Shown here: positions 31,652-57,175 of the stretch, in pieces | How positions within the stretch are numbered: position 1 is the first letter of the stretch | How the letters are laid out: every line of letters starts with the position of its first letter | Assembly (NCBI GenBank): GCA_034226945.1 | Contig: CP120455.1 | Coordinates: 1,178,001-1,242,000 of the forward strand | Length of the DNA stretch: 64,000 nucleotides | Direction of reading: 5' to 3' | Origin: Picochlorum sp. SENEW3 | Lineage: Eukaryota | Program-made: the position numbers and the translations under genes | Notes under the pieces: generated by a model | What the model saw: only the letters and a program-made list of their open reading frames with translations | The model's database searches: none | Told to the model about the DNA's origin: nothing

Positions 31652-32653
31652 ATGGGTGATGTATCGAACGTAGAAGAGCTCACTGCTGCTGACTATTACG
31701 CAGATTCCTATGGGCATTTCGGAATTCACGAGGAGATGCTCAAAGATGAAGTTAGAACGAAGACATACATGAACTCCATTCTCAACAATAGTCACATATT
31801 TAAAGATAAAGTTGTTTTGGATGTTGGGTGCGGGACAGGGATCCTGAGCCTGTTTGCATCCAAAGCAGGGGCCAGGCACGTCTATGGCATAGATATGTCT
31901 GCCATCGCGGACTCTGCCAAAGAAATTGTGAAGAACAACGGGTATGAAGATAGAGTGACAATCATCAAGGGGAAAATGGAGGACGTCAGTCTCCCGGAGA
32001 AGGTTGATATTATCATATCAGAGTGGATGGGATACTTTCTGCTGTACGAAAGCATGTTGGACACGGTAATTTACGCCAGAGACAAGTGGCTCAAGCCAGA
32101 TGGACTCGTATTTCCTGATACAGCAGTTTTGTACATGGTCGCCATCGAAGATGGGGAGTACAAGAATGAGAAGATTGATTGGTGGAGCAATGTATATGGT
32201 TTTAATATGGACTGCATCGGAAAAGTTGCCATGATGGAGCCCCTCGTGGACATTGTGGAGCCGAATCAAATTTGCTCACAACCAGCGGTCATGGCCAGAT
32301 TCGATATCAAGACAATGAAGAAGGAGGATGCAGCATTCACGTCGTCTTTCAGGATTCCAGTAACAAGGAAGGACTACGTTCATGCGTTCGTAGCATACTT
32401 TGATGTGATATTCAATGACTGTCACAAGCCTATTGGATTTTCAACGTCGCCGAGAGCAACATCCACGCACTGGAAGCAGACTGTTTTCTACTTGAAGGAC
32501 ACCCTGATCGTCAACCCAGGGGATTCCATCATGGTCACTCTGTCTTCAGGCCCAAATCAGAAGAACCCAAGGGACCTAGACATCAATATCGAATACCAGC
32601 TATCGAATGGAGAGGGATCGTGGCATGGTAAGCAGGAGTACAAGCTTCGATGA
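31652..32653 (+). CDS. PRMT1: Protein arginine N-methyltransferase 1
   Basis: DYYADSY.HFGIHEEMLKD, VLDVGCGTG, ISEWMGY, THWKQT. Confidence 0.95.
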   Translation: MGDVSNVEELTAADYYADSYGHFGIHEEMLKDEVRTKTYMNSILNNSHIFKDKVVLDVGCGTGILSLFASKAGARHVYGIDMSAIADSAKEIVKNNGYEDRVTIIKGKMEDVSLPEKVDIIISEWMGYFLLYESMLDTVIYARDKWLKPDGLVFPDTAVLYMVAIEDGEYKNEKIDWWSNVYGFNMDCIGKVAMMEPLVDIVEPNQICSQPAVMARFDIKTMKKEDAAFTSSFRIPVTRKDYVHAFVAYFDVIFNDCHKPIGFSTSPRATSTHWKQTVFYLKDTLIVNPGDSIMVTLSSGPNQKNPRDLDINIEYQLSNGEGSWHGKQEYKLR

Positions 32654-32659
32654 GGAGCA

Positions 32660-32830
32660 AGCTCTATAATAGTACTTATTCGTACATCATATGCATATAG
32701 CTATGTGACTGTAGTGTTTTCCGTTGTATCACACGTCGGGGATGTCCTCCTCTGCTCGTGTCCGAGGCCTTTGGAAGACTGTTGGTTTCTCCTCGCCGTT
32801 GAGTTCCCACAGGAAAAACTTGGCGAGATT
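32660..32830 (-). ncRNA. Predicted Fanzor omegaRNA (scaffold overlapping the ORF 3' end, guide from flanking DNA)
   Basis: Positional inference from known TnpB/Fanzor loci; the structure was not demonstrated. Confidence 0.35.
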
Positions 32831-35803
32831 GATGGCTGCATTCACGTCTCGTTGCCAGAAAGCACGCTCACATCCATTGTTCATACAACGGCGTACTTTC
32901 CAGCGCTTGTGAAGCCCCACCGCGGGGGGGTCCTCCAATTTGGCATGGCAGGCACAGCAGTACTGGCTACTTCGGAACTCGCCAATCTCGATGAAACAGC
33001 ACCTCTGCCGCAGCAGGTCCTTGAGGGCCCGAAAGCAGACCCTCTGTTTTCCGTGCTTCCCCGAGTTGATCGAGGCGTCCCCAAATACAACGACGGTCTT
33101 GCTCTGAGCCTCCCTGTCCTTCGTCCCGCAGATCCGTTCAACCATGGAGTCCAGCATTCGTTGCGTCCTCGTGTACACAGAGAACCTTTGCCTCCGGAAA
33201 CAGTTCTGGGAATAAAATCCATACACCGTGTTCAGGTGGCTATTGGTCGTTCTGCAGAACGCCAGCATATCCCTTGCTGTTCCGACCTTTCTGGTGGGTG
33301 CCTCCTGTTTCCATGCCCCGATGCCTGGCCTGGCCTGCGACCACGCCCGTTCCAGCGCCTTTCGTTTGAGGATGCCCGCACGCGACTGCATCTCGTGGTT
33401 GGTCAGGCTCATCGTCTCGAACGGGTCGTAGTCCCCGTGTCGCTTGTTCTCCTGGCAGAGCTCCCTCATCTTGCCCTGCTCCAGCCTGATGCCCACGTGG
33501 CCATCGGGCCCTGGATCGAAGACCCATGCGTTGTCGGGCGATGCGGCCAGCAGGTCTTTTGCTCTGTCCAGATTCCCTCGACTGGAGACATTCGAGGACT
33601 GCGGGGTGCCTGGCCCCGTCCTACTCGTTCGTTTTCGCTTCCTCGGCTTTCCTGTCGAAGACCCCGTCGCCTTCTCCGCCGCCCTGGCCTTTATCCTTTC
33701 CTTTTCCTCCTCGTCGGCACGAATTTCGTCGTCCGTCTTCAGACGATAATACTGCATCGACACGTCGACACCGTCCGTGGACAGCTGCCCTCCAAACAGC
33801 CACTGGTGTCCGTTTTGGCACCTTCTGACTTTGATATTGAACAGGGCCGTCCAACAGCACTCTTGATACCGCAACGCAGCCTTTTCCACTTCTTCTCGAG
33901 CATCCAAGTACTCTTGACTGCCATTCAATAACGCGTTCTTCCTGTCTGTCACTTCCTTGCACAGCTTCTTTTCCTTGTCAGACTTCTTGTACCGGTGCCG
34001 CTTTCCAGTCGGGGTCTGCTCAAATTCGAGCTTGCTTTTTTTCTTATTCTCGTCAAGTTCCTGTTTAACCTTCTGTTGCTCGTCGGTCAACCAGTTTTCT
34101 TTGTCCATGTCCACGATTCTCGACTCGATTGACTTCACCCTTTGTCGTGCCTCGCGCAGTGTCTCCTGGGGGCCGTGTATCGCTTCAGCAATGTCACTAC
34201 ACTCCAGTGCCAGGCCCTCTGCGAGGCCGGTGATAGCCACAGTCGGAATGCTGATATGACAGGCCCTCTTCTTTGCCAGGGGGAGGACGGACGGCACCTG
34301 GATTCGCTTTCCCCATGGGGCCTTTGCATCGTTGCCTCTCCTCGGAGTAACGAACAAGAACGACGAGCGGAGCTTGGGCAGAATGACCCTCTCCATATAG
34401 TCGGCAAAATCATTCTTGGTCATGTCGTAGTCGGCCAAGGACGAAGGGAGGCGCAGTTCAGACGAGATGCCATCGATCCAACCCACTTGGTCTTGGCTCA
34501 GGAATTCGGCACCACCCTTCTGACTCTGGTACAGAATCCTCTCCGACAGAAGGCACAAAATTTGTCCCCGATACCTGTCGTTTCGGTCCACGACACGTTG
34601 TCCGTTGTCCCCACTCCGGAATCCCTGGTCCGTGCGGGTGGTGAACAAGTCTGGACCAGAACACTGTCGGAATATGTCCAGCGCATGCTTCACGTGGTGG
34701 ACAAACTCCTTCTTAGTGAGCGATCCTTTCCTCAAATCTCGCTCAATGGCCACCGCCAGTTTTTCTCCTACACACATATTCACTAACTCGATGGCCTGCG
34801 GTGGGCTCCCCGGGCCGGACTGCTCAGAACGGTGGCGGTTGTATTCCATCACCTCACCCGCAACGAAGTGCACGAATTCCATCATCTTGGCATTTTCCTT
34901 TCGGCCTTCCTGATCCGGGAATTTCTCCCGAATAGGGTTGACGATTGTCTCCTGGATGTCTCGGACCTCTTCCTCGGTTAGATTCTTCAATCTGTCGTAC
35001 CCTTCCTTCAGACCACGGAAATCCACGTCCTCCCACACAGCGGCGGCAACGGCAGACACCAAAGAACGAAAGTCATCCGCGTACCGTGCCCCAAAGGTGC
35101 GTGCAAGCCGAACCTTGACAATCTTGCAAAGGTTGTGATACGCATTGTGGTGCAGAATAATGTGCAAATTCTGAGCCTTTGCATCCGCCGCAGCTTTGAG
35201 GCAATGCCGACGCCAGGCCTTGTGACCGTCGACGTCCCATCTCAGAGACTCGCCTGCCTGAGGTAGTGGAGCCTCTTCTGCATACTGTCGGAGCGAGTCG
35301 TACAGGGGTGTCCTGATGTCCTGTTTGAGGCCGTCCCCATACCTGAGGTCTTTGATGGCATCAAAGATGTAGTTCCAAAAATTGTTGTAATCCATCTTCC
35401 CCAGATCAATACCTTCCTCGAAGCATCGGTACACGTGGTAGTGAGCAGCTTGGGTGGCTTCGACGGATATGTGGCCCACCATCGTGGCCGTGTCATACAG
35501 AAGCTCTTTGATTCTGGATGTGCGAGCAATACCCTTCCACTGTCCCTTGTTCTTTCGGTTGTGGTCTTGATACCCGCCCAGAGATCCAGGTTTTATCACC
35601 TTCCTCACTTCTTGCGCGTATTTACTCTGTTTACCCCGTGTTTTTCTATAGAGACCTAACTTTTCAGTCCTGAATTTTGCCTCTTTCCTGTGGTCTCCTG
35701 TAGGTCTGGACCCTGATGGGTCATCACACACCATGTGGGGAGCCTCCCCTCCAGGCGTCGTTGTTGCGACGGTAGGACCTTGATTAACGAACCCTTTTTC
35801 CAT
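32729..35803 (-). CDS. Fz1: Fanzor1 (eukaryotic TnpB/OMEGA-type RNA-guided DNA endonuclease), 1024 aa
   Basis: FGGQLSTDGVDVS (WED), FDPG (RuvC-I D763), VVFGDAS, IGEFRSSQYCCAC (RuvC-II E942 + CxxC), CMNNGC, WQRDVNAAINL (RuvC-III D986); intronless. Confidence 0.9.
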   Translation of the reverse strand: MEKGFVNQGPTVATTTPGGEAPHMVCDDPSGSRPTGDHRKEAKFRTEKLGLYRKTRGKQSKYAQEVRKVIKPGSLGGYQDHNRKNKGQWKGIARTSRIKELLYDTATMVGHISVEATQAAHYHVYRCFEEGIDLGKMDYNNFWNYIFDAIKDLRYGDGLKQDIRTPLYDSLRQYAEEAPLPQAGESLRWDVDGHKAWRRHCLKAAADAKAQNLHIILHHNAYHNLCKIVKVRLARTFGARYADDFRSLVSAVAAAVWEDVDFRGLKEGYDRLKNLTEEEVRDIQETIVNPIREKFPDQEGRKENAKMMEFVHFVAGEVMEYNRHRSEQSGPGSPPQAIELVNMCVGEKLAVAIERDLRKGSLTKKEFVHHVKHALDIFRQCSGPDLFTTRTDQGFRSGDNGQRVVDRNDRYRGQILCLLSERILYQSQKGGAEFLSQDQVGWIDGISSELRLPSSLADYDMTKNDFADYMERVILPKLRSSFLFVTPRRGNDAKAPWGKRIQVPSVLPLAKKRACHISIPTVAITGLAEGLALECSDIAEAIHGPQETLREARQRVKSIESRIVDMDKENWLTDEQQKVKQELDENKKKSKLEFEQTPTGKRHRYKKSDKEKKLCKEVTDRKNALLNGSQEYLDAREEVEKAALRYQECCWTALFNIKVRRCQNGHQWLFGGQLSTDGVDVSMQYYRLKTDDEIRADEEEKERIKARAAEKATGSSTGKPRKRKRTSRTGPGTPQSSNVSSRGNLDRAKDLLAASPDNAWVFDPGPDGHVGIRLEQGKMRELCQENKRHGDYDPFETMSLTNHEMQSRAGILKRKALERAWSQARPGIGAWKQEAPTRKVGTARDMLAFCRTTNSHLNTVYGFYSQNCFRRQRFSVYTRTQRMLDSMVERICGTKDREAQSKTVVVFGDASINSGKHGKQRVCFRALKDLLRQRCCFIEIGEFRSSQYCCACHAKLEDPPAVGLHKRWKVRRCMNNGCERAFWQRDVNAAINLAKFFLWELNGEEKPTVFQRPRTRAEEDIPDV

Positions 35804-36679
35804 CGGTACTACCGTATCTTTATCTCTTCCTCCTCACACACGCGCCACGGTCCTTTTGTCACCTACACAAGGAAACTGGTCGTAACTCCCCTGCTATCAA
35901 ACGTGGTCCTTCATGTCTGTATGGGATTCGTACCTTGTGTGTGCAATAGTTGTCTCTGTAACCGTCCGAACAGGCTCGGCTGATCAGTGCGCGGCCTCCA
36001 CGGGCGTTGATCAGAGCTGCTGGGTCAACGCCCGTGCAAAAAAACTAACAACAACAACAACTGGTATTCAACTCAACAACCAACCGCACGCCCAGCAACA
36101 ACAGCACCGGCGGTCCTTTTATGGAACTGTAATTCGTATATAAACTCTACTACTTTGATAATACGAGACGACGAGACCAAGGGTCGGAAACGCACGACCA
36201 CGCCAGTCGTCGTCCGAGTCTATACTATCGTTACTGTAGTAGCCTACCACAGCGCAGCTATGTTTCTTCGCGAGATGCCGTTGACAAACGTCAGTTTGGG
36301 ACGAGATAATTCTCACAAAAAAAAAAAAACCGAGCCTGACAGGAATTGTCACAGCATATCAACTCCATGCATCGCCATGAGGCCTCATGGCACGAGTCGG
36401 ATGTCATCACTAGGCTTGGGGCAGTGCTATCCGCAACAATTCCACCCTCCCCAATCGAAGTTTTTCGTGTTTCAAGGAAGAACCCTTGCCTAGTTTGAGG
36501 GAGTTCCGCCTCTTTTCCTCTGAGATGAGACTCAAAAGCTGCAATTCTTTCTGCCTCTAGTTCATTGGTGTGTTCTTTGGCACGAAGACCTCCTTTTCCC
36601 TGGATAAAAGTTTTCTTTTAAACTGTTGGTTACACGTGCATGGTAAGAACAAAAAGAAAATCAAACAAGAAAATGAAAT

Positions 36680-37924
36680 CTACTTTGACACTTTTATTGG
36701 CACTCGGGCAGCCATGAGTGCCAGAGGTAAACTTGCCAACTTTCTCCACTTTGGAACATAGGCTCTCTTTGTGAAATTATTGTATTCGTTGGCTTCTATA
36801 CCATCCAGAATTTGGCGATACAATATCAGGGCTGACCATACTGGCCACCGAGCATCAGCATCGAGCAGGTTCACTCCTGCCTCAGCCTCCGCAAAGTAAT
36901 CTCGAGCTCTCTGGATCTGGAACTGCATGAATGCACGCCATCTATCGTCTATCTTCCCAGTTGTTGGTGCAAACATGCCACGCAATACTTCGTCCCCTGA
37001 GATGCCAAACTTGTCCAGTTCATCCAGAGGGAGATACACTCTAGACCTGGTCATGGCATCCTCTCCAACATCTCGAAGAATATTTGTCAGCTGGTTTGCT
37101 GTCCCTAACGCTAATGCCGCCTTATAAACTGGCTCTAATGGTCCCTTGTACGTAGGATCGACTCCCATGACTGGTGTGCTCATCAAGGCCACAGTTCCTG
37201 CCACGCGATAGCAATATTCGTATAATTCATCATAGTTTTCGTATCTGTTCTTGTATAGATCCATTCTCATTCCTCCGATCATATCACGGAAAGGCTGGAT
37301 ATCCACGGGGAACTTGGTCAATGTGTCCGTAAGTGTGGCATCTAGCGAGTCATATGGGCGCCCATCGAACAGGGCTTCCAGCCTCTCCTCCCACCTGTCC
37401 AGTGCTGCGGGGGTGATTCTCGCGGAATTTGGCCCATCGACCAATTCGTCTGTTCTTCTGCACCAGACGTAGATCGCCCAAATAGCACGCGCTTTCTCTG
37501 GTGTCATGAGTTGTGTTCCTAGGTAAAATGTCTTTGCATATTCAGAGGTTACCTCTCCTGACCTCAAGTAGGCATCCTCCAACATCTGCCCCGACCATTT
37601 ATGTGAAACTGGCAATCCATTTGGAAAAGCTTTGTGCAGCTCGATCTGAGACCTCGTGGCTGCAGCCTCAATTTCATGCCCAGACATTGGTTGTGTCACT
37701 GGAACTTTCCCACTGCTTGCAGGTGACGAAGGTGTGCTCGACGATACTTTGGCTGCTGCTGCTGATGTCTTGCGACTTTGGGAATCTTTCGAGCCACTCC
37801 CACCCACCGATGCAGATGCGCATTGGACTCTCCTTCCCACAAGGGCACACGACCTGCTGGTAAAGCCGGGTCTACAGTCTAGAGCCCCGTGCATAGACAT
37901 CGATATCGGCAATGCATGTGCCAT
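36680..37924 (-). CDS. PSY: Phytoene synthase
   Basis: [45 protein letters not shown]; transit peptide. Confidence 0.95.
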
Positions 37925-38334
37925 CCTCCTATTAAATAGTCTCTAGACGCAGATGGATTGTGCCAAATCCCGTTTCAGGACAGAAATCCAGAACCTGTTA
38001 TCCTGTTCTGACGGACTCACTCCTTGAGGCTTCGACGCGTATCTTCTGCAAAACGACATGAGACTGGTGAGTTGACGCACATTGTATTTCACATAGATGA
38101 AATGATATTTCTAAGAGGGTGCATCGGACAATGGGCAAAGACGAGCCAGGTACGTCACCGTTGGGGGCGGTGCTTTTTTTGCAAACGTTACTCGAGTGCA
38201 CGAGGCAGGCCTCTTTTACATACCTAATGATACCTCTCAAATATGAAATGAAAATAAAACCTCGATAATTGGTTCTAAGCCAACGCCATCGATCAATCAA
38301 TTCTCAAGTCACTGGATTGGTCAATCAAGCAAGT

Positions 38335-38625
38335 AGACTGGTTTGCATCCACCACCTCTGGGAATGAGGCATTTTCATCCCTTCAAAGGGTCCCTTTGAT
38401 TTTTCTTGTTTTGCTTCTGTCATTGCATTTTGACCATGCACTTGTAATATAAAGAAGTAGCAGTATTTTTCGACTGAGCGAGGCCTCTCTTTCTTCTCAA
38501 GAAGCCTCTGCCGCCACAATAGAGGTGTCTCTCTATGGTAGTAGAGCCACCTCCAATGCAGACTGGTTTGCATCCACCACCTCTGGGAATGAGGCATTAT
38601 TATCCCTTCAAAGGGTCCCTTTGAT
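38335..38625. repeat. 66-bp direct repeat (38335-38400 and 38560-38625) around a 159-bp spacer
   Basis: AGACTGGTTTGCATCCACCACCTCTGGGAATGAGGCATT..ATCCCTTCAAAGGGTCCCTTTGAT occurs twice with 2 mismatches. Confidence 0.9.
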
Positions 38626-38764
38626 AGGAGGCAGTCGTAGAATTTTCGACAGCATGCCCTGGATGCGAGGACAAAGGCGTCGATGCCAGCCATGAGAGCC
38701 CTCTGATAAATCAGTAAAATCGCACAGACTCATCAATTTGTATAAGTTCTTCAAGATAACAAAA

Positions 38765-40150
38765 ATGGCCCAGCAAATGACCATGTTCTCTAAGGCTGCC
38801 ACTGCCAACTTCACCGCTGTCCGCCCATCTAAGGCTCAGCGCAACTCCGCTGTCGTCGTGCGCGCTGGAGCATACGATGAGGAGCTTGTTCAGACTGCTG
38901 TACGTACATTTTGCATGTTGTTTACTCTGGTCATTGTTGTGGGGACTGCACTGGTGATGCCGATGCCGTGGTAGGAACCTCGTTTGTGGGCGTCTTATCC
39001 AGATGACCGAGGATAAGGTCCACAAACGAATGCTGCACCGCTCCATGCATGATCAATCCAAAAAACTGGAATGTACCGGTTATATGCGATTATTTTGACC
39101 AACAAATGATGACAATGTGCGTTGTAGAACAAGATTGCCTCCGCCGGCAAGGGTATTCTCGCCATGGACGAGTCCAACGCCACCTGCGGAAAGCGTTTGG
39201 AATCTATTGGCCTGGAGAACACCGAGTTGAACCGTCAGAGATACCGTGAGCTCCTTGTGACCACCCCAGGACTCGGAGAGTACATCTCTGGAGCTATCCT
39301 CTTCGAGGAGACCCTCTACCAGGAGACCCGTACCCCAGGAAAGACCATGGTGGACTGCTTGAACGAGCAGGGAATTGTCCCAGGAATCAAGGTTGACAAG
39401 GGTCTTCACCCACTTGCCAACTCCAACGGAGAGTCTTGGTGCTCTGGACTCGATGGACTCGCCCAGAGATGCGCTGACTACTACAAGGCTGGAGCTCGTT
39501 TCGCCAAGTGGAGATCTGTTGTTTCCATCCCAGCTGGACCATCCACCATCGCTGTGCGTGACTGCGCTTATGGACTTGCTCGCTATGCTGCCATTGCCCA
39601 GAACGCTGGACTTGTGCCAATTGTTGAGCCAGAGATTCTCCTCGATGGAGACCATGACATTGACCGCACCCTCGAGGTTGCTGAGATGACCTGGGCTGAG
39701 ACCTTCAAGTACATGGCCGACAACGGAGTCATGTTCGAGGGTATTCTCCTCAAGCCATCTATGGTTACCCCAGGAGCTGAGTGCAGCCGCAGGTCTGGAG
39801 CTGAGGAGGTTGCTGAGTACACTCTCAAGATGCTCAACCGCCGTGTGCCACCAGCTGTTCCAGGAATCATGTTCTTGTCTGGAGGACAGTCTGAGCTCGA
39901 GGCTACCATGAACCTCAACGCCATGAACCAGTCACCAAACCCATGGCACGTGTCCTTCTCCTATGCCCGTGCTCTCCAGAACTCTGTTCTCAAGACCTGG
40001 AAGGGAGAGGATGCCAACGCAGCTGCTGCCCAGGAGGCTCTCATCAAGCGTGCCCAGGCCAACTCTGCTGCCCAGCTCGGAAAGTACACCGCTGATGGAG
40101 AGTCCGCAGAGGCCTCCAAGGGTATGTTCGAGAAGGGTTACACCTACTAA
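38765..40150 (+). CDS. FBA: Plastid fructose-bisphosphate aldolase class I
   Basis: Transit peptide exon, intron 38900-39127, GILAMDESNATCGKRL, VPIVEPE, FLSGGQSE, C-terminal Y. Confidence 0.95.
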
Positions 40151-54081: not shown

Positions 54082-56088
54082 ATGACCATGACAAGTGCAG
54101 TCAATATAGAATCCATTCAACCCTGTTTTGATTGCTCTGCATCAAAATTGGCATGGGTAACAGCTGATGGAAAAGTGCGAATATTTTACATTGACTCTGG
54201 TTCGACTCGAGTGAAGGATATCACGAGTCAATTAGCCGAGGGAAGCATACAAGAAGGACAGATATCACATTCTATATATTCATGCGTCAATTGGTGTCCA
54301 AAGGTGCGTGAGACGGGGTTGCCTTCCCATGCATGACATGTATGTTTGATATTTGACAGGAGCTCTGGGGCGATGGGAGACAGATTTGTGATACATGAAG
54401 TTCAATTTCCTATTTTATTACTGCAGGGGCCATATGAGAATGTAATGGTTGCCGGTGCGGTTGATGGGTCGGTGATTGCCTACGATGCGACTAGAATGGC
54501 TGTCGTATGGAGGGCATCGAGGCGAGAGGGGGCGATTACAGGCATGGTGAACATCCACGGTTCGAAGAGTGTTTTGGTCATGACAAAGTCCAGCAAAGCG
54601 TTTGTGTTGGACATGAAGTCTGGTAATGAGCTGGCCAGTTGGTCTGCCCCCACAAAGTTTGATGTGACAAAGATGGCGTCCTTGCCCGATGGGCGCATAT
54701 TACTGGCTGGAAGCGCCATTACTATGGTGGATAGCACGACAGGAGCTCGCCTTGGTAAGTGGACAGGGCATGCAACGCCCGTGATTGACTTGACAGCAGC
54801 AGAGCAGTACTTTTGTTCAGCGGCTACTGGCGATAGAACTATTGCTGTGTGGAGCGCGAGGACGACTCCTGCCGGTAAGCTGTGTACAAAGGCGGCGATT
54901 GCCCAAACAAGTCTAAACCACCCAGTTGCACAGGTGCACATGGCAAGAGTGTCGCCTTCATTATTCCATGTGGTGGCTGTCACACTGTCAGGGGATATTC
55001 GTGTTTGCCGGTGCAGAGCTTCGGAAAATAAGACGACATCGTCAGCGATTGATGTAGTAGAAATTCAGGAATGGGCGGCGTCGGAGAGTGGAGGCCCCTC
55101 AGTAGCACAGGTTGCGATTGATAATGCAGATGAGGATAGTCTGCAGTTGACAATTGCCTTTGGCACTGTGGTCAAACCTCGTGTCACGAGAATGAAAATC
55201 ACAGCACCACAAGATGGTTCTATTTTAGAGATAGTAAAGGCAGATGAGACGGATGATGATATATTGATGAAAGGAACCTCAACGGCAGGCAATCAGACTA
55301 GCAACAAGTCTGCCCACGTTCCCTTGGCGGTTGCCGAGGAGAATGAAACTGTGGTCCTCCACCCACCGTCTGAAAATGTTGAAGAAGAGGAGGACTTTGA
55401 CCACGTAGATGAAATGAGTGATGACGAGGACCCTGAGAGAAACTTGACCTTTGCGGAAAGAATAGGAGCCCTGAAGCAGAAGGACCAACATGCTCCAGCA
55501 CCCCAGGAGCCTGAGGAGGACTTCACGCAACCAAAAGCGGATTCACTCGCTGTCTTGCTGGGCCAAGCGATAGCCAACGAAGATAAGGGACTCTTTGAGA
55601 AATGTTTGAGTGTCAGGAATGCAAAGACAATTGGCAAAACTGCCAGGAATTTGCAGCCTGGTGATGCCACGGTCCTCGTGAAGATGCTGGTTCAAAAGCT
55701 GCAAGCAGCTCCTCGGCGAGGAACACAACTGGCCTCGTGGATTAGAGCCATCTTGATCCATCATGCGGGTTATTTTGCTGGTACAGGTGCATGCAAAGAG
55801 CATTTGGGAAATTTACACCAAATTATCGAATCACGGCTTGCATCATATCAATCCTTGGTGGCATTGAGTGGTAGACTGGATGTTGTGCTGTCTAGCGCCA
55901 AATTCGCTGGTCAGTATTCTAGCAGCGGGGTCGATGCTCCATTAGTGACAGTGGATATGGATGATTCGGGCGCCCTTGAAGTCCAGGACGCAGCTGCGGC
56001 GATTGGTTTTGAGTCAGATAGCGAGGAAGACGAAGAAGAAAGTGAGGAAGAGAGTGATGAGGATGACCTCATGGAGGAAGATGATTGA
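54082..56088 (+). CDS. UTP5: WDR43/UTP5 (WD40 + Utp12 domain)
   Basis: WD repeats (WTGHATPV), SLAVLLGQAI...WIRAIL.HH...LSGRLD Utp12 domain, acidic tail; intron ~54304-54425. Confidence 0.8.
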
Positions 56089-56140
56089 TAAATTACCTAA
56101 CATTATCATTATTATTATTATCATTATTGGAATATCGCTA

Positions 56141-56872
56141 TCAACCCCTTCCTCTTCCCCCTCTAAAACCTCCACGACCAAAACCTCGACCTCCACCCCC
56201 ACGGCCCCCAAAACCACCACGACCTCCCCCTCCACGACCTCCAAAGCCTCCACGGCCTCCTCCTCGACTTCCAAATCCGCCACGACCGCCGCCGCGGCCT
56301 CCTCCACGACCTCCTCCACGACCTTTGGGTGCCCCTTTCGGTTTGGGTAAGAACCTCTCTAGTGGCAACAGCTTGTTGGGATCAATGAAGAACTTGTCCC
56401 CTGAGGAATACGATGTGGCAACCACCCCTTCAGACATCTTTATTGTAAAATACACTGAATTAATCGGGCCAAAAACCTCCTCCACTTTGCCAATCTGTGT
56501 TTTATTCTCCAAAAATATGGGGGCATTGAAATACGGGATCATTGTGTTGGTCAGCTTGCACACCGCTTCACCTTCACAGGGGTGTTCAAACATGCCTGCC
56601 TCTACTACCTGGGCTGGTGGTCCCTGCGGCTCGAATCCCCCTCTTCCACGCCCACCACGAAATCCACCGCGATCTCCTGCACAAAAGATGACGAAAGCCC
56701 TCGTCAGATACGACATGCTTCTCCGACAACCAACATGCATGCCCAACCCACACCATCGACACCACCCTATACCCCCAGCGATGGGAACAAATCGCGTTCA
56801 TGAATCATTTATATACTTTTTAAACCCCTCCGTACCGCGACCAAAGCCGCCCCTTCCTCTCGGGGGCCTCAT
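56141..56872 (-). CDS. GAR1: H/ACA snoRNP protein Gar1
   Basis: RGG boxes flanking HPCEGE...[25 protein letters not shown]...[10 protein letters not shown]. Confidence 0.93.
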
Positions 56873-57175
56873 GAGTACGCAGGCTGGACCTCTATCAGTC
56901 GCACGTAGAAACAATTGAACGGTCGAGCTCACTCGTGCAAATACTGCTGATGCTCGTTTATCTTTTTTACTCTCTGAATGCCATTTGATCGCTCAGATGG
57001 GACAAAGTCCGCAGAGGCATTGATGGGAACTCGATCAATCAGCGATACCCAATCAAAGGCTCGCTTGGAACGGTGATCACTCCTGAGAGAGCATTGCGTT
57101 GCACTCCCACAGGAAACAAGCACCCAGGCACTGCCTCACACCGCTGTGCACTTTTATCCAATAAGTACAATAAAA

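Follow-up and report, generated by a model that had tools for sequence, protein, structure and literature searches.

An intact Fanzor1-type gene convergent with PRMT1 in a Picochlorum nuclear genome and a possible omegaRNA at its 3′ end

The locus and its Fanzor1-type gene

Little has yet been documented of what Fanzors, the RNA-guided nucleases of eukaryotes, naturally do in the genomes of their hosts. Here we describe a Fanzor1-type gene in a 64,000-nt stretch of DNA from Picochlorum sp. SENEW3 (contig CP120455.1, positions 1,178,001 to 1,242,000; hereafter the window, numbered from its first letter), and ask whether its omegaRNA, the RNA that guides such a nuclease, is encoded where the gene abuts PRMT1. 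The window covers a compact part of a green-algal nuclear genome in which introns are few. Its gene order around the locus is threonyl-tRNA synthetase (ThrRS), dyskerin, PRMT1, the Fanzor open reading frame (ORF), phytoene synthase (PSY) and aldolase; these neighbours are nuclear genes of a eukaryote, and among named genomes that of Picochlorum sp. BPE23 comes closest. PRMT1 (31652..32653, plus strand) runs from the ATG of MGDVSN... to a TGA at 32651–32653, with the C-terminus ...WHGKQEYKLR* and a Pfam PRMT_C match of 1.3e-59. Facing it on the minus strand is the intact Fanzor1-type ORF (P0001, 32729..35803), which encodes 1024 amino acids (aa) from 35803 to 32729 and ends in a stop codon at 32731–32729 (tca on the plus strand). 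Between the two convergent stops lies an AT-rich spacer of 75 bp (32654–32728; 36% GC), exactly as a preliminary description of this DNA had read it from the sequence. The interval for which that description proposed an omegaRNA, 32654–32830, is made up of the last 34 Fanzor codons (32729–32830) and ordinary convergent spacer.

Judging from family profiles and a structural model, the ORF is a Fanzor1-type RNA-guided nuclease, a relative of TnpB, with an intact catalytic triad. An exhaustive phmmer search recovered 624 relatives at E ≤ 1e-3, 12 of them at ≤ 1e-30. The profile of 149 relatives, compared with the Protein Data Bank (PDB), matched SpuFz1 (9.5e-66), GtFz1 (8.4e-54) and PpFz1 (1.7e-48) far ahead of Fanzor2 (3.4e-12) and TnpB (5.8e-05), and the match to the solved Fanzor1 proteins runs across their length. 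An AlphaFold2 model of the ORF (pLDDT 80.2, pTM 0.77) gave the same picture in Foldseek against the PDB: ranks 1–7 are all Fanzor1 chains (E 3.1e-12 to 2.1e-09), SpuFz1, GtFz1 and PpFz1 are matched over ∼990 alignment columns (E 3e-12 to 6.5e-10), and ApmFz2 appears only at rank 50. The earlier assignment of the ORF to Fanzor thus holds by family profile, by likeness of the model to solved Fanzor1 structures and by its triad. Searched as a single sequence with phmmer, the ORF returned nothing relevant from the PDB, and an NCBIfam scan gave no match.

The catalytic and zinc-binding residues are in place. Counted over non-gap rows of the 149-sequence alignment, the RuvC triad is D763 (102/106), E942 (144/146) and D986 (129/142), and R985, which opens the RuvC-III motif RDVNAAIN (residues 985–992; 32828..32851, minus strand), is R in 141 of 142. 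Between RuvC-II and RuvC-III, the zinc-ribbon cysteines C949, C952, C973 and C978 are nearly invariant in the alignment. This zinc-ribbon assignment rests on alignment and structure, because the Pfam match to Cas12f1-like_TNB (residues 934–993, 23.1 bits) falls under the 26.3-bit cut-off. The reading frame is uninterrupted over 3075 bp. A basic stretch, KPRKRKR (residues 719–725), located in a low-confidence loop, resembles the consensus of a nuclear localization signal and is a putative one.

Conservation extends close to the end of the protein. A C-terminal motif, P1007..F1010..R1012 (codons at 32768..32785, minus strand), is kept in most non-gap rows (P 125/140, F 111/142, R 123/136) and is invariant in nine diverse relatives. 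Residues 1013–1024 (32732–32767), which follow it, are variable, acidic and of low pLDDT. Protein-level constraint thus reaches R1012, and only the last 12 codons are free of it.

The convergent spacer compared with its genomic surroundings

To judge whether the spacer is unusual, we compared it with other gene ends in the window. The window has 40 ORFs of 200 aa or more; the gene list took in 31 of these, without nine shadow ORFs that overlap longer ones and without regard to small genes and introns. Stop-to-stop gaps in its eight convergent pairs are 2547, 585, 21, 75, 139, 47, 1308 and 19 bp, and the gap is shorter than 75 bp in three of the seven pairs other than PRMT1–Fanzor. A squeeze of 75 bp is normal for this genome. 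At the pairs 26467/26489, 52623/52671 and 60425/60445 the stops stand only 21, 47 and 19 bp apart; with gaps of this size at three pairs, overlapping antisense 3′ ends must therefore be widespread in the genome. The 3′ ends of both the PRMT1 and the Fanzor transcripts must fall in the 75-bp spacer. As a possible polyadenylation signal we considered TGTAA, which occurs in the 3′ flanks of 9 of the 31 genes compared with 7.8% of random 150-nt windows; it is absent downstream of both PRMT1 and the Fanzor ORF. A scan for bacterial-type promoters and terminators, unsuited to a eukaryote, gave no match, and a search for tRNA and tmRNA genes found none.

The spacer and the adjoining end of the Fanzor ORF contain an inverted pair, TGTGA at 32704–32708 and TCACA at 32729–32733, and the spacer has two short palindromes, ATATGCATAT (32689–32698) and ATAGCTAT (32697–32704). 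All three were cited in the preliminary description and are present as stated there, but they do not amount to a signal above chance, since shuffled sequences match them. The window as a whole has 1.14 perfect 10-bp palindromes per kb (73 in all) and 4.08 palindromic positions of 8 bp per kb (261 in all). When the gap was shuffled with its dinucleotides preserved (n = 5000), at least one 8-bp palindrome arose in 43.6% of the shuffles and at least one 10-bp palindrome in 14.8%. For 5-bp inverted pairs with loops of 10–30 nt in 32654–32740, two were counted in the real sequence compared with a mean of 1.78 in 2000 shuffles, 49.2% of which had two or more.

A candidate omegaRNA

Fanzors that have been characterised carry the omegaRNA at, or downstream of, the 3′ end of their ORF; the RNA stops where the element does, at its right end, and its guide comes from the flank (PMC10432273, PMC10530073). 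The family rule invoked in the preliminary description agrees with these papers. Given this position, it follows that 32654–32830 is the right place to look. Fanzor1 omegaRNAs of 150, 90 and 75 nt have been described, and their stem-loop 1 (SL1) is always of seven base pairs (PMC11423790).

We folded the minus strand in silico around the Fanzor stop codon. A 96-nt stretch from 32740 to 32645 folds into two hairpins and a mostly unpaired 3′ tail, with stem pair probabilities of 0.82–0.95. Candidate stem-loop 1 (32703..32734, minus strand) has 7 bp, five Watson–Crick and two G–U, pairing 32734–32728 with 32709–32703 around an 18-nt loop (probabilities 0.82–0.92); it carries the Fanzor stop codon in its 5′ arm and extends the TGTGA/TCACA pair. 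Candidate stem-loop 2 (32665..32691, minus strand) has 10 bp, mostly A–U, with one bulge and a 6-nt loop (0.88–0.95). The remainder, 32645..32664 on the minus strand, is mostly unpaired, apart from two outer pairs at 32661/32662 (0.53), and is a hypothetical guide stretch by analogy with Fanzor1 (PMC11423790). It takes in 11 nt of spacer together with the stop codon and final two codons of PRMT1. This is the layout of a minimal Fanzor1 omegaRNA, although such folds are common in shuffles.

A number of results weigh against the presence of an omegaRNA at this position. The 96-nt fold is no more stable than expected (z –0.59; 55 of 200 shuffles as good) and ranks 14th of 31 among equivalent 3′ stretches of genes in the window. 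Over the 102 nt from the Fanzor stop, 114 of 200 shuffles folded at least as well (z +0.21), and the lowest z of 44 sliding windows (–2.84) is located inside the ORF. More favourable to an RNA is the full 177-nt interval of the preliminary description, which reached a z of –1.74 (8 of 200 shuffles as good). Rfam 15 gave no match anywhere in the window at gathering score and none in 32450–33050 at E up to 10; whether Rfam holds any Fanzor omegaRNA model was left unchecked. The stems and palindromes of the gap, as described above, are at chance level. The tail after RDVNAAIN, where the scaffold had been placed, is constrained as protein through R1012. Fold statistics, the Rfam result and the missing terminal inverted repeats (see below) thus leave the claim of an omegaRNA at this interval unsupported, and a scaffold overlapping that conserved protein motif fares no better. 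The proposal that the guide derives from the PRMT1 3′ flank has a mixed outcome: the predicted fold gives essentially that layout, but the fold is no better than those of shuffles.

Further results bear on the ends of the element, the first of them in favour of an omegaRNA here and the others against. PRMT1 ends in ...KQEYKLR in six of the eight relatives retrieved, namely those that are full-length and come from close green algae (P0155–P0159 and the window), and in -YRMR or -YKMR in P0160 and P0166. Because PRMT1 thus keeps its native, conserved C-terminus, any right end of the Fanzor element would have to lie within 32654–32728. In our search around the Fanzor ORF we found no inverted or terminal repeats and no target-site duplications. 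Two candidates, the 10-mer GCATGGTAAG at 32623 and 36638 and a 20-nt inverted pair (85% identical) flanking PSY, were put at chance level by a rough hand estimate and rejected. GC content falls from 55–63% in the Fanzor ORF to 36% in the spacer, a value like that of host 3′ regions, with the drop exactly at the stop codon. This contrast argues that the spacer is host DNA rather than element DNA. Finally, tblastn with the protein and blastn with 32500–36800 recovered only the locus itself from the 64-kb window, with no second copy.

Origin and relatives of the Fanzor gene

Of the 30 matches in the nearest language-model clusters, 22 share PF07282 and DUF8286, and members of these clusters are mostly Nucleocytoviricota. 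Structural matches in BFVD were led by a Gaeavirus protein (E 4.2e-17), followed by proteins of Homavirus, Klosneuvirus and Tetraselmis virus 1. At 0.66, the GC content at third codon positions (GC3) of the Fanzor ORF exceeds that of every other ORF in the set of 31 (0.417 to 0.623). Together, the giant-virus relatives and the codon composition suggest that the Fanzor gene was acquired laterally. Such an origin agrees with a view quoted in PMC12633428, in which algae gain their Fanzors by lateral transfer. The likeness to the Fanzor-like ‘transposases’ of giant viruses lies in these nearest clusters and best BFVD matches; unlike them, the gene here stands alone among host housekeeping genes (ThrRS, dyskerin, PRMT1, PSY and aldolase) and not in a viral block.

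In Picochlorum sp. BPE23 there is a paralogue (P0002) that is 53% identical and truncated before RuvC. Five short predicted proteins from public data (P0008, P0018, P0019, P0020 and P0026) match parts of the Fanzor at 66–81% identity. In P0018, the N-terminal half corresponds to another reading frame of the window (ORF 32881–33222, minus strand), after which the match switches to the Fanzor frame. These five look like frameshifted, decaying copies in related genomes. Since the family has other copies, P0002 and the fragments, it has been mobile.

A search of genome contigs for related loci gave 603 pattern matches, of which none was confirmed. Scanning mis-binned algal contigs with a degenerate PRMT1 motif for an empty site returned two loci, both of them PRMT1 genes with unrelated C-termini and hence uninformative. 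Four Fanzor hits are already listed for BPE23 in Table S2 of PMC10711439, and the visible parts of their N-terminal sequences differ from P0001 and P0002. Among the papers listed by a literature search, PMC12633428 alone names both Picochlorum and Fanzor, and its accessible part assigns no Fanzor to Picochlorum; Picochlorum is absent from the accessible parts of the supplements of PMC10432273 and PMC10530073.

The PRMT1–Fanzor junction in Picochlorum sp. BPE23

PRMT1 of the window is identical to M9434_006648 of Picochlorum sp. BPE23 at 323 of 326 residues. The BPE23 model (P0154, 362 aa) follows the window as far as ...WHG and then continues with 36 different residues. A 100% identical counterpart of these last 36 residues is encoded in the window on the other strand, by two segments of the PSY leader region (37943..38233, minus strand) that are bounded by GT–AG sites, 38233–38224 and 38045–37943. 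Splicing 31652–32627 (plus strand) to 38233–38224 and 38045–37943 (minus strand) at GT...AG sites reproduces P0154 bar three substitutions. A gene model cannot join strands, and the PSY leader must therefore lie downstream of PRMT1, in the same orientation, in the BPE23 assembly.

These gene models imply a relative inversion. One of its boundaries would fall somewhere from 32628 to the PSY stop, and its second somewhere from 38235 to the aldolase gene. In its simplest version the whole Fanzor–PSY block would be inverted, with a breakpoint inside the interval of the preliminary description. Alternatively, PSY alone may be inverted, in which case the predicted intron would exceed 4 kb, or the difference may stem from a misassembly. 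The BPE23 assembly is phased and diploid, and was annotated with BRAKER after repeat masking (PMC9615354); RNA-seq of BPE23 is described in the same paper. The sequence records that carry P0154 and the PSY of the window are within 408 bp of each other in length, and an inversion would account for this better than the presence or absence of 4 kb.

As repeats that might have mediated an inversion, we sought inverted matches of at least 9 nt between 32600–32760 and 38200–39200 and found none; an 11-nt direct match in aldolase exon 1 was also considered and is taken as coincidence. Separately, the divergent intergenic region between PSY and aldolase contains a 66-nt direct repeat (38335–38400 and 38560–38625; copies 97% identical and 225 bp apart). 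This repeat occurs nowhere else in the window and falls where the second inversion boundary would be.

The difference at this junction bears on the guide. Since the closest public genome is arranged differently here, the element may first have inserted beside DNA other than PRMT1, a further point against an omegaRNA of the kind proposed. If the flank is secondary, the rearrangement itself could have given rise to a ‘guide against PRMT1’ as a side effect.

Interpretation and alternative explanations

Taking these results together, we regard an omegaRNA encoded on the minus strand at this interval as the best single explanation, with a probability of roughly 40%. A complete ORF with an intact triad and zinc ribbon speaks for it, as do the further copies that the family has. 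That such an RNA exists, where it ends and what its guide is all follow from family logic and a compatible, non-significant fold, and are accordingly put forward here as a tentative model. In this model, minus-strand transcription through the Fanzor stop codon most likely also yields the omegaRNA of the nuclease. The product would be a small RNA like those of SpuFz1 and PpFz1, with a 7-bp stem-loop that starts from the stop codon (32734–32703) and a second hairpin (32691–32665). Its single-stranded 3′ end, ∼15–20 nt long (∼32664–32645), would act as the guide, complementary to the last bases of the spacer, the PRMT1 stop and the last two to three PRMT1 codons. The RNA–protein complex could then cut a chromosome that has the same flank and a proper motif but lacks the element; cutting of an element-less chromosome would follow the homing or retention logic of TnpB. 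An omegaRNA at this interval is thus plausible and unproven.

A plain spacer that encodes no RNA is nearly as likely as an omegaRNA at this interval. The region would then be simply the end of an ORF and a host-type spacer with the polyadenylation regions of two convergent genes; the Fanzor would be a lone insertion that can no longer move, its right end having been lost or never taken along, for instance when the junction was rearranged, and the copy would be decaying or kept for another reason. Several observations speak for this reading: all fold statistics are neutral, the gap features are at chance level, the GC content (36%) and length of the spacer are typical of host convergent gaps (19–139 bp), terminal repeats were not found, the junction is rearranged relative to the closest genome, and the relatives are decaying, P0002 being truncated before RuvC and P0018 frameshifted. 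Against it stands the state of the gene itself. An open ORF of 3075 bp with all catalytic and zinc-binding residues intact is unexpected in a long-dead copy. Moreover, published Fanzors were unstable without their RNA (PMC10530073), so that an intact gene argues for a partner RNA somewhere. That RNA could lie elsewhere, an explanation we consider unlikely: almost wholly within the final 100–200 nt of the ORF, in which case the right end would fall near the stop codon and the guide would be spacer rather than PRMT1 sequence, or in trans at ORF-less ‘ghost’ loci, as in Spizellomyces. Folds over the ORF end are mildly negative (z –2.52 for 32930–32781 and –2.36 for 32810–32661), GC content falls to the host level exactly at the stop codon, and there are precedents, in that the omegaRNAs of ISDra2 and GtFz1 overlap their ORFs and Spizellomyces has 134 ghost loci (PMC10432273). 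However, these z-scores are weak and come from the 44 windows without correction, the ORF end is constrained as protein through R1012, and the 64-kb window holds no ghost-like copy of the 3′ region.

The preliminary description had also raised a homing drive and an antisense role against PRMT1; neither is supported, overlapping convergent 3′ ends being general in this genome. That the main product is an antisense regulator, with Fanzor read-through lowering PRMT1 via the 3′-end overlap, seems to us very improbable. Any Fanzor transcript that extends more than 75 nt past the stop is indeed antisense to the PRMT1 coding sequence, but at least four of the seven other convergent pairs have the same geometry (gaps of 19–139 bp), so nothing about it is specific here. 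Nothing else points to regulation, the downstream neighbour of PRMT1 appears to be different in the closest public genome, and antisense regulation of PRMT1 is needed to explain nothing at this locus.

A more elaborate possibility would join the two themes, the spacer being where a live Fanzor1 of giant-virus origin has its right end and its omegaRNA and, at the same time, one breakpoint of a recent Fanzor–PSY inversion between near-identical Picochlorum genomes or haplotypes. We think the chance of this slim. If true, a nuclease with a guide on the PRMT1 stop region would have made, or would still be making, the flank that it targets structurally polymorphic in a diploid alga, a natural case of Fanzor-associated chromosome rearrangement.

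Comparison with characterised Fanzor and TnpB systems

SpuFz1 of Spizellomyces punctatus (90-nt omegaRNA; PDB 8GKH, 9CEU–9CEZ) is the best match by profile (9.5e-66) and by structure (E 3.1e-12; TM-score 0.53–0.55 on the target), and shares with the ORF described here a D-E-D RuvC domain with zinc ribbon. Its 7-bp SL1 and one further hairpin resemble the fold predicted here, although the RNA here is statistically unsupported. The two proteins differ in size, 1024 aa compared with ∼600 aa of Fanzor in the solved chains, and are only 10–12% identical. In addition, SpuFz1 loci have conserved 30-nt inverted repeats and occur in dozens of copies, neither of which was found in this window.

For overlap of the omegaRNA with the ORF, the precedents are GtFz1 of Guillardia theta (the fifth structural match, E 3.1e-10), in which the omegaRNA overlaps 17 C-terminal codons, and TnpB of ISDra2, in which it overlaps more (PMC10432273). 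Here, in contrast, the last conserved motif ends at R1012 and only ∼12 codons are free of protein constraint. CrFNuc-1, a green-algal nuclear Fanzor1 from Chlamydomonas reinhardtii, has a non-coding RNA that maps to the 3′ untranslated region (UTR) of the Fanzor mRNA (PMC10530073). According to the same source, it is present in six copies with a strongly conserved 3′ UTR and in 20 extra RNA-only copies, and no cleavage activity was detected.

The locus offers an intact and unusually large (1024 aa) Fanzor1, a single gene among housekeeping genes, in a compact, culturable and transformable alga. With the right end boxed into 75 bp, it is a convenient natural system in which to ask whether the guide RNA is made, what its target is and whether homing or rearrangement takes place between haplotypes. 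For the present, the finding adds one algal Fanzor and an unverified conjecture on its RNA. A new and more concrete lead comes from the difference in orientation at the PRMT1–Fanzor junction between two near-identical genomes.

Other features of the window

Upstream of the Fanzor ATG, 876 bp of intergenic sequence (35804..36679) extend to the PSY stop. This region presumably contains the Fanzor promoter and leader, any left end and the PSY 3′ UTR; its four ORFs have no Pfam match. Some 200 bp upstream of the Fanzor ATG lies a perfect 12-bp inverted repeat, CACGGGCGTTGA / TCAACGCCCGTG (35999–36010 and 36025–36036, with a 14-nt spacer), which adjoins a (CAA)n run, and an A13 tract is located at 36317–36329. 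PSY itself (36680..37924, minus strand) matches PF00494, and its top named matches are phytoene synthases.

Farther away on the plus strand, two long ORFs (54346–56088 and 56085–56918) overlap by 4 bp. These may be two closely packed genes, or parts of a single gene that a frameshift or short intron interrupts. The aldolase-like gene (38765–40150, plus strand) has an apparent first exon at 38765–38900, transit-peptide-like and ending ...YDEELVQTA, which is followed by a GTACGT...TTGTAG intron of ∼228 bp before the main ORF, both delimited by eye.

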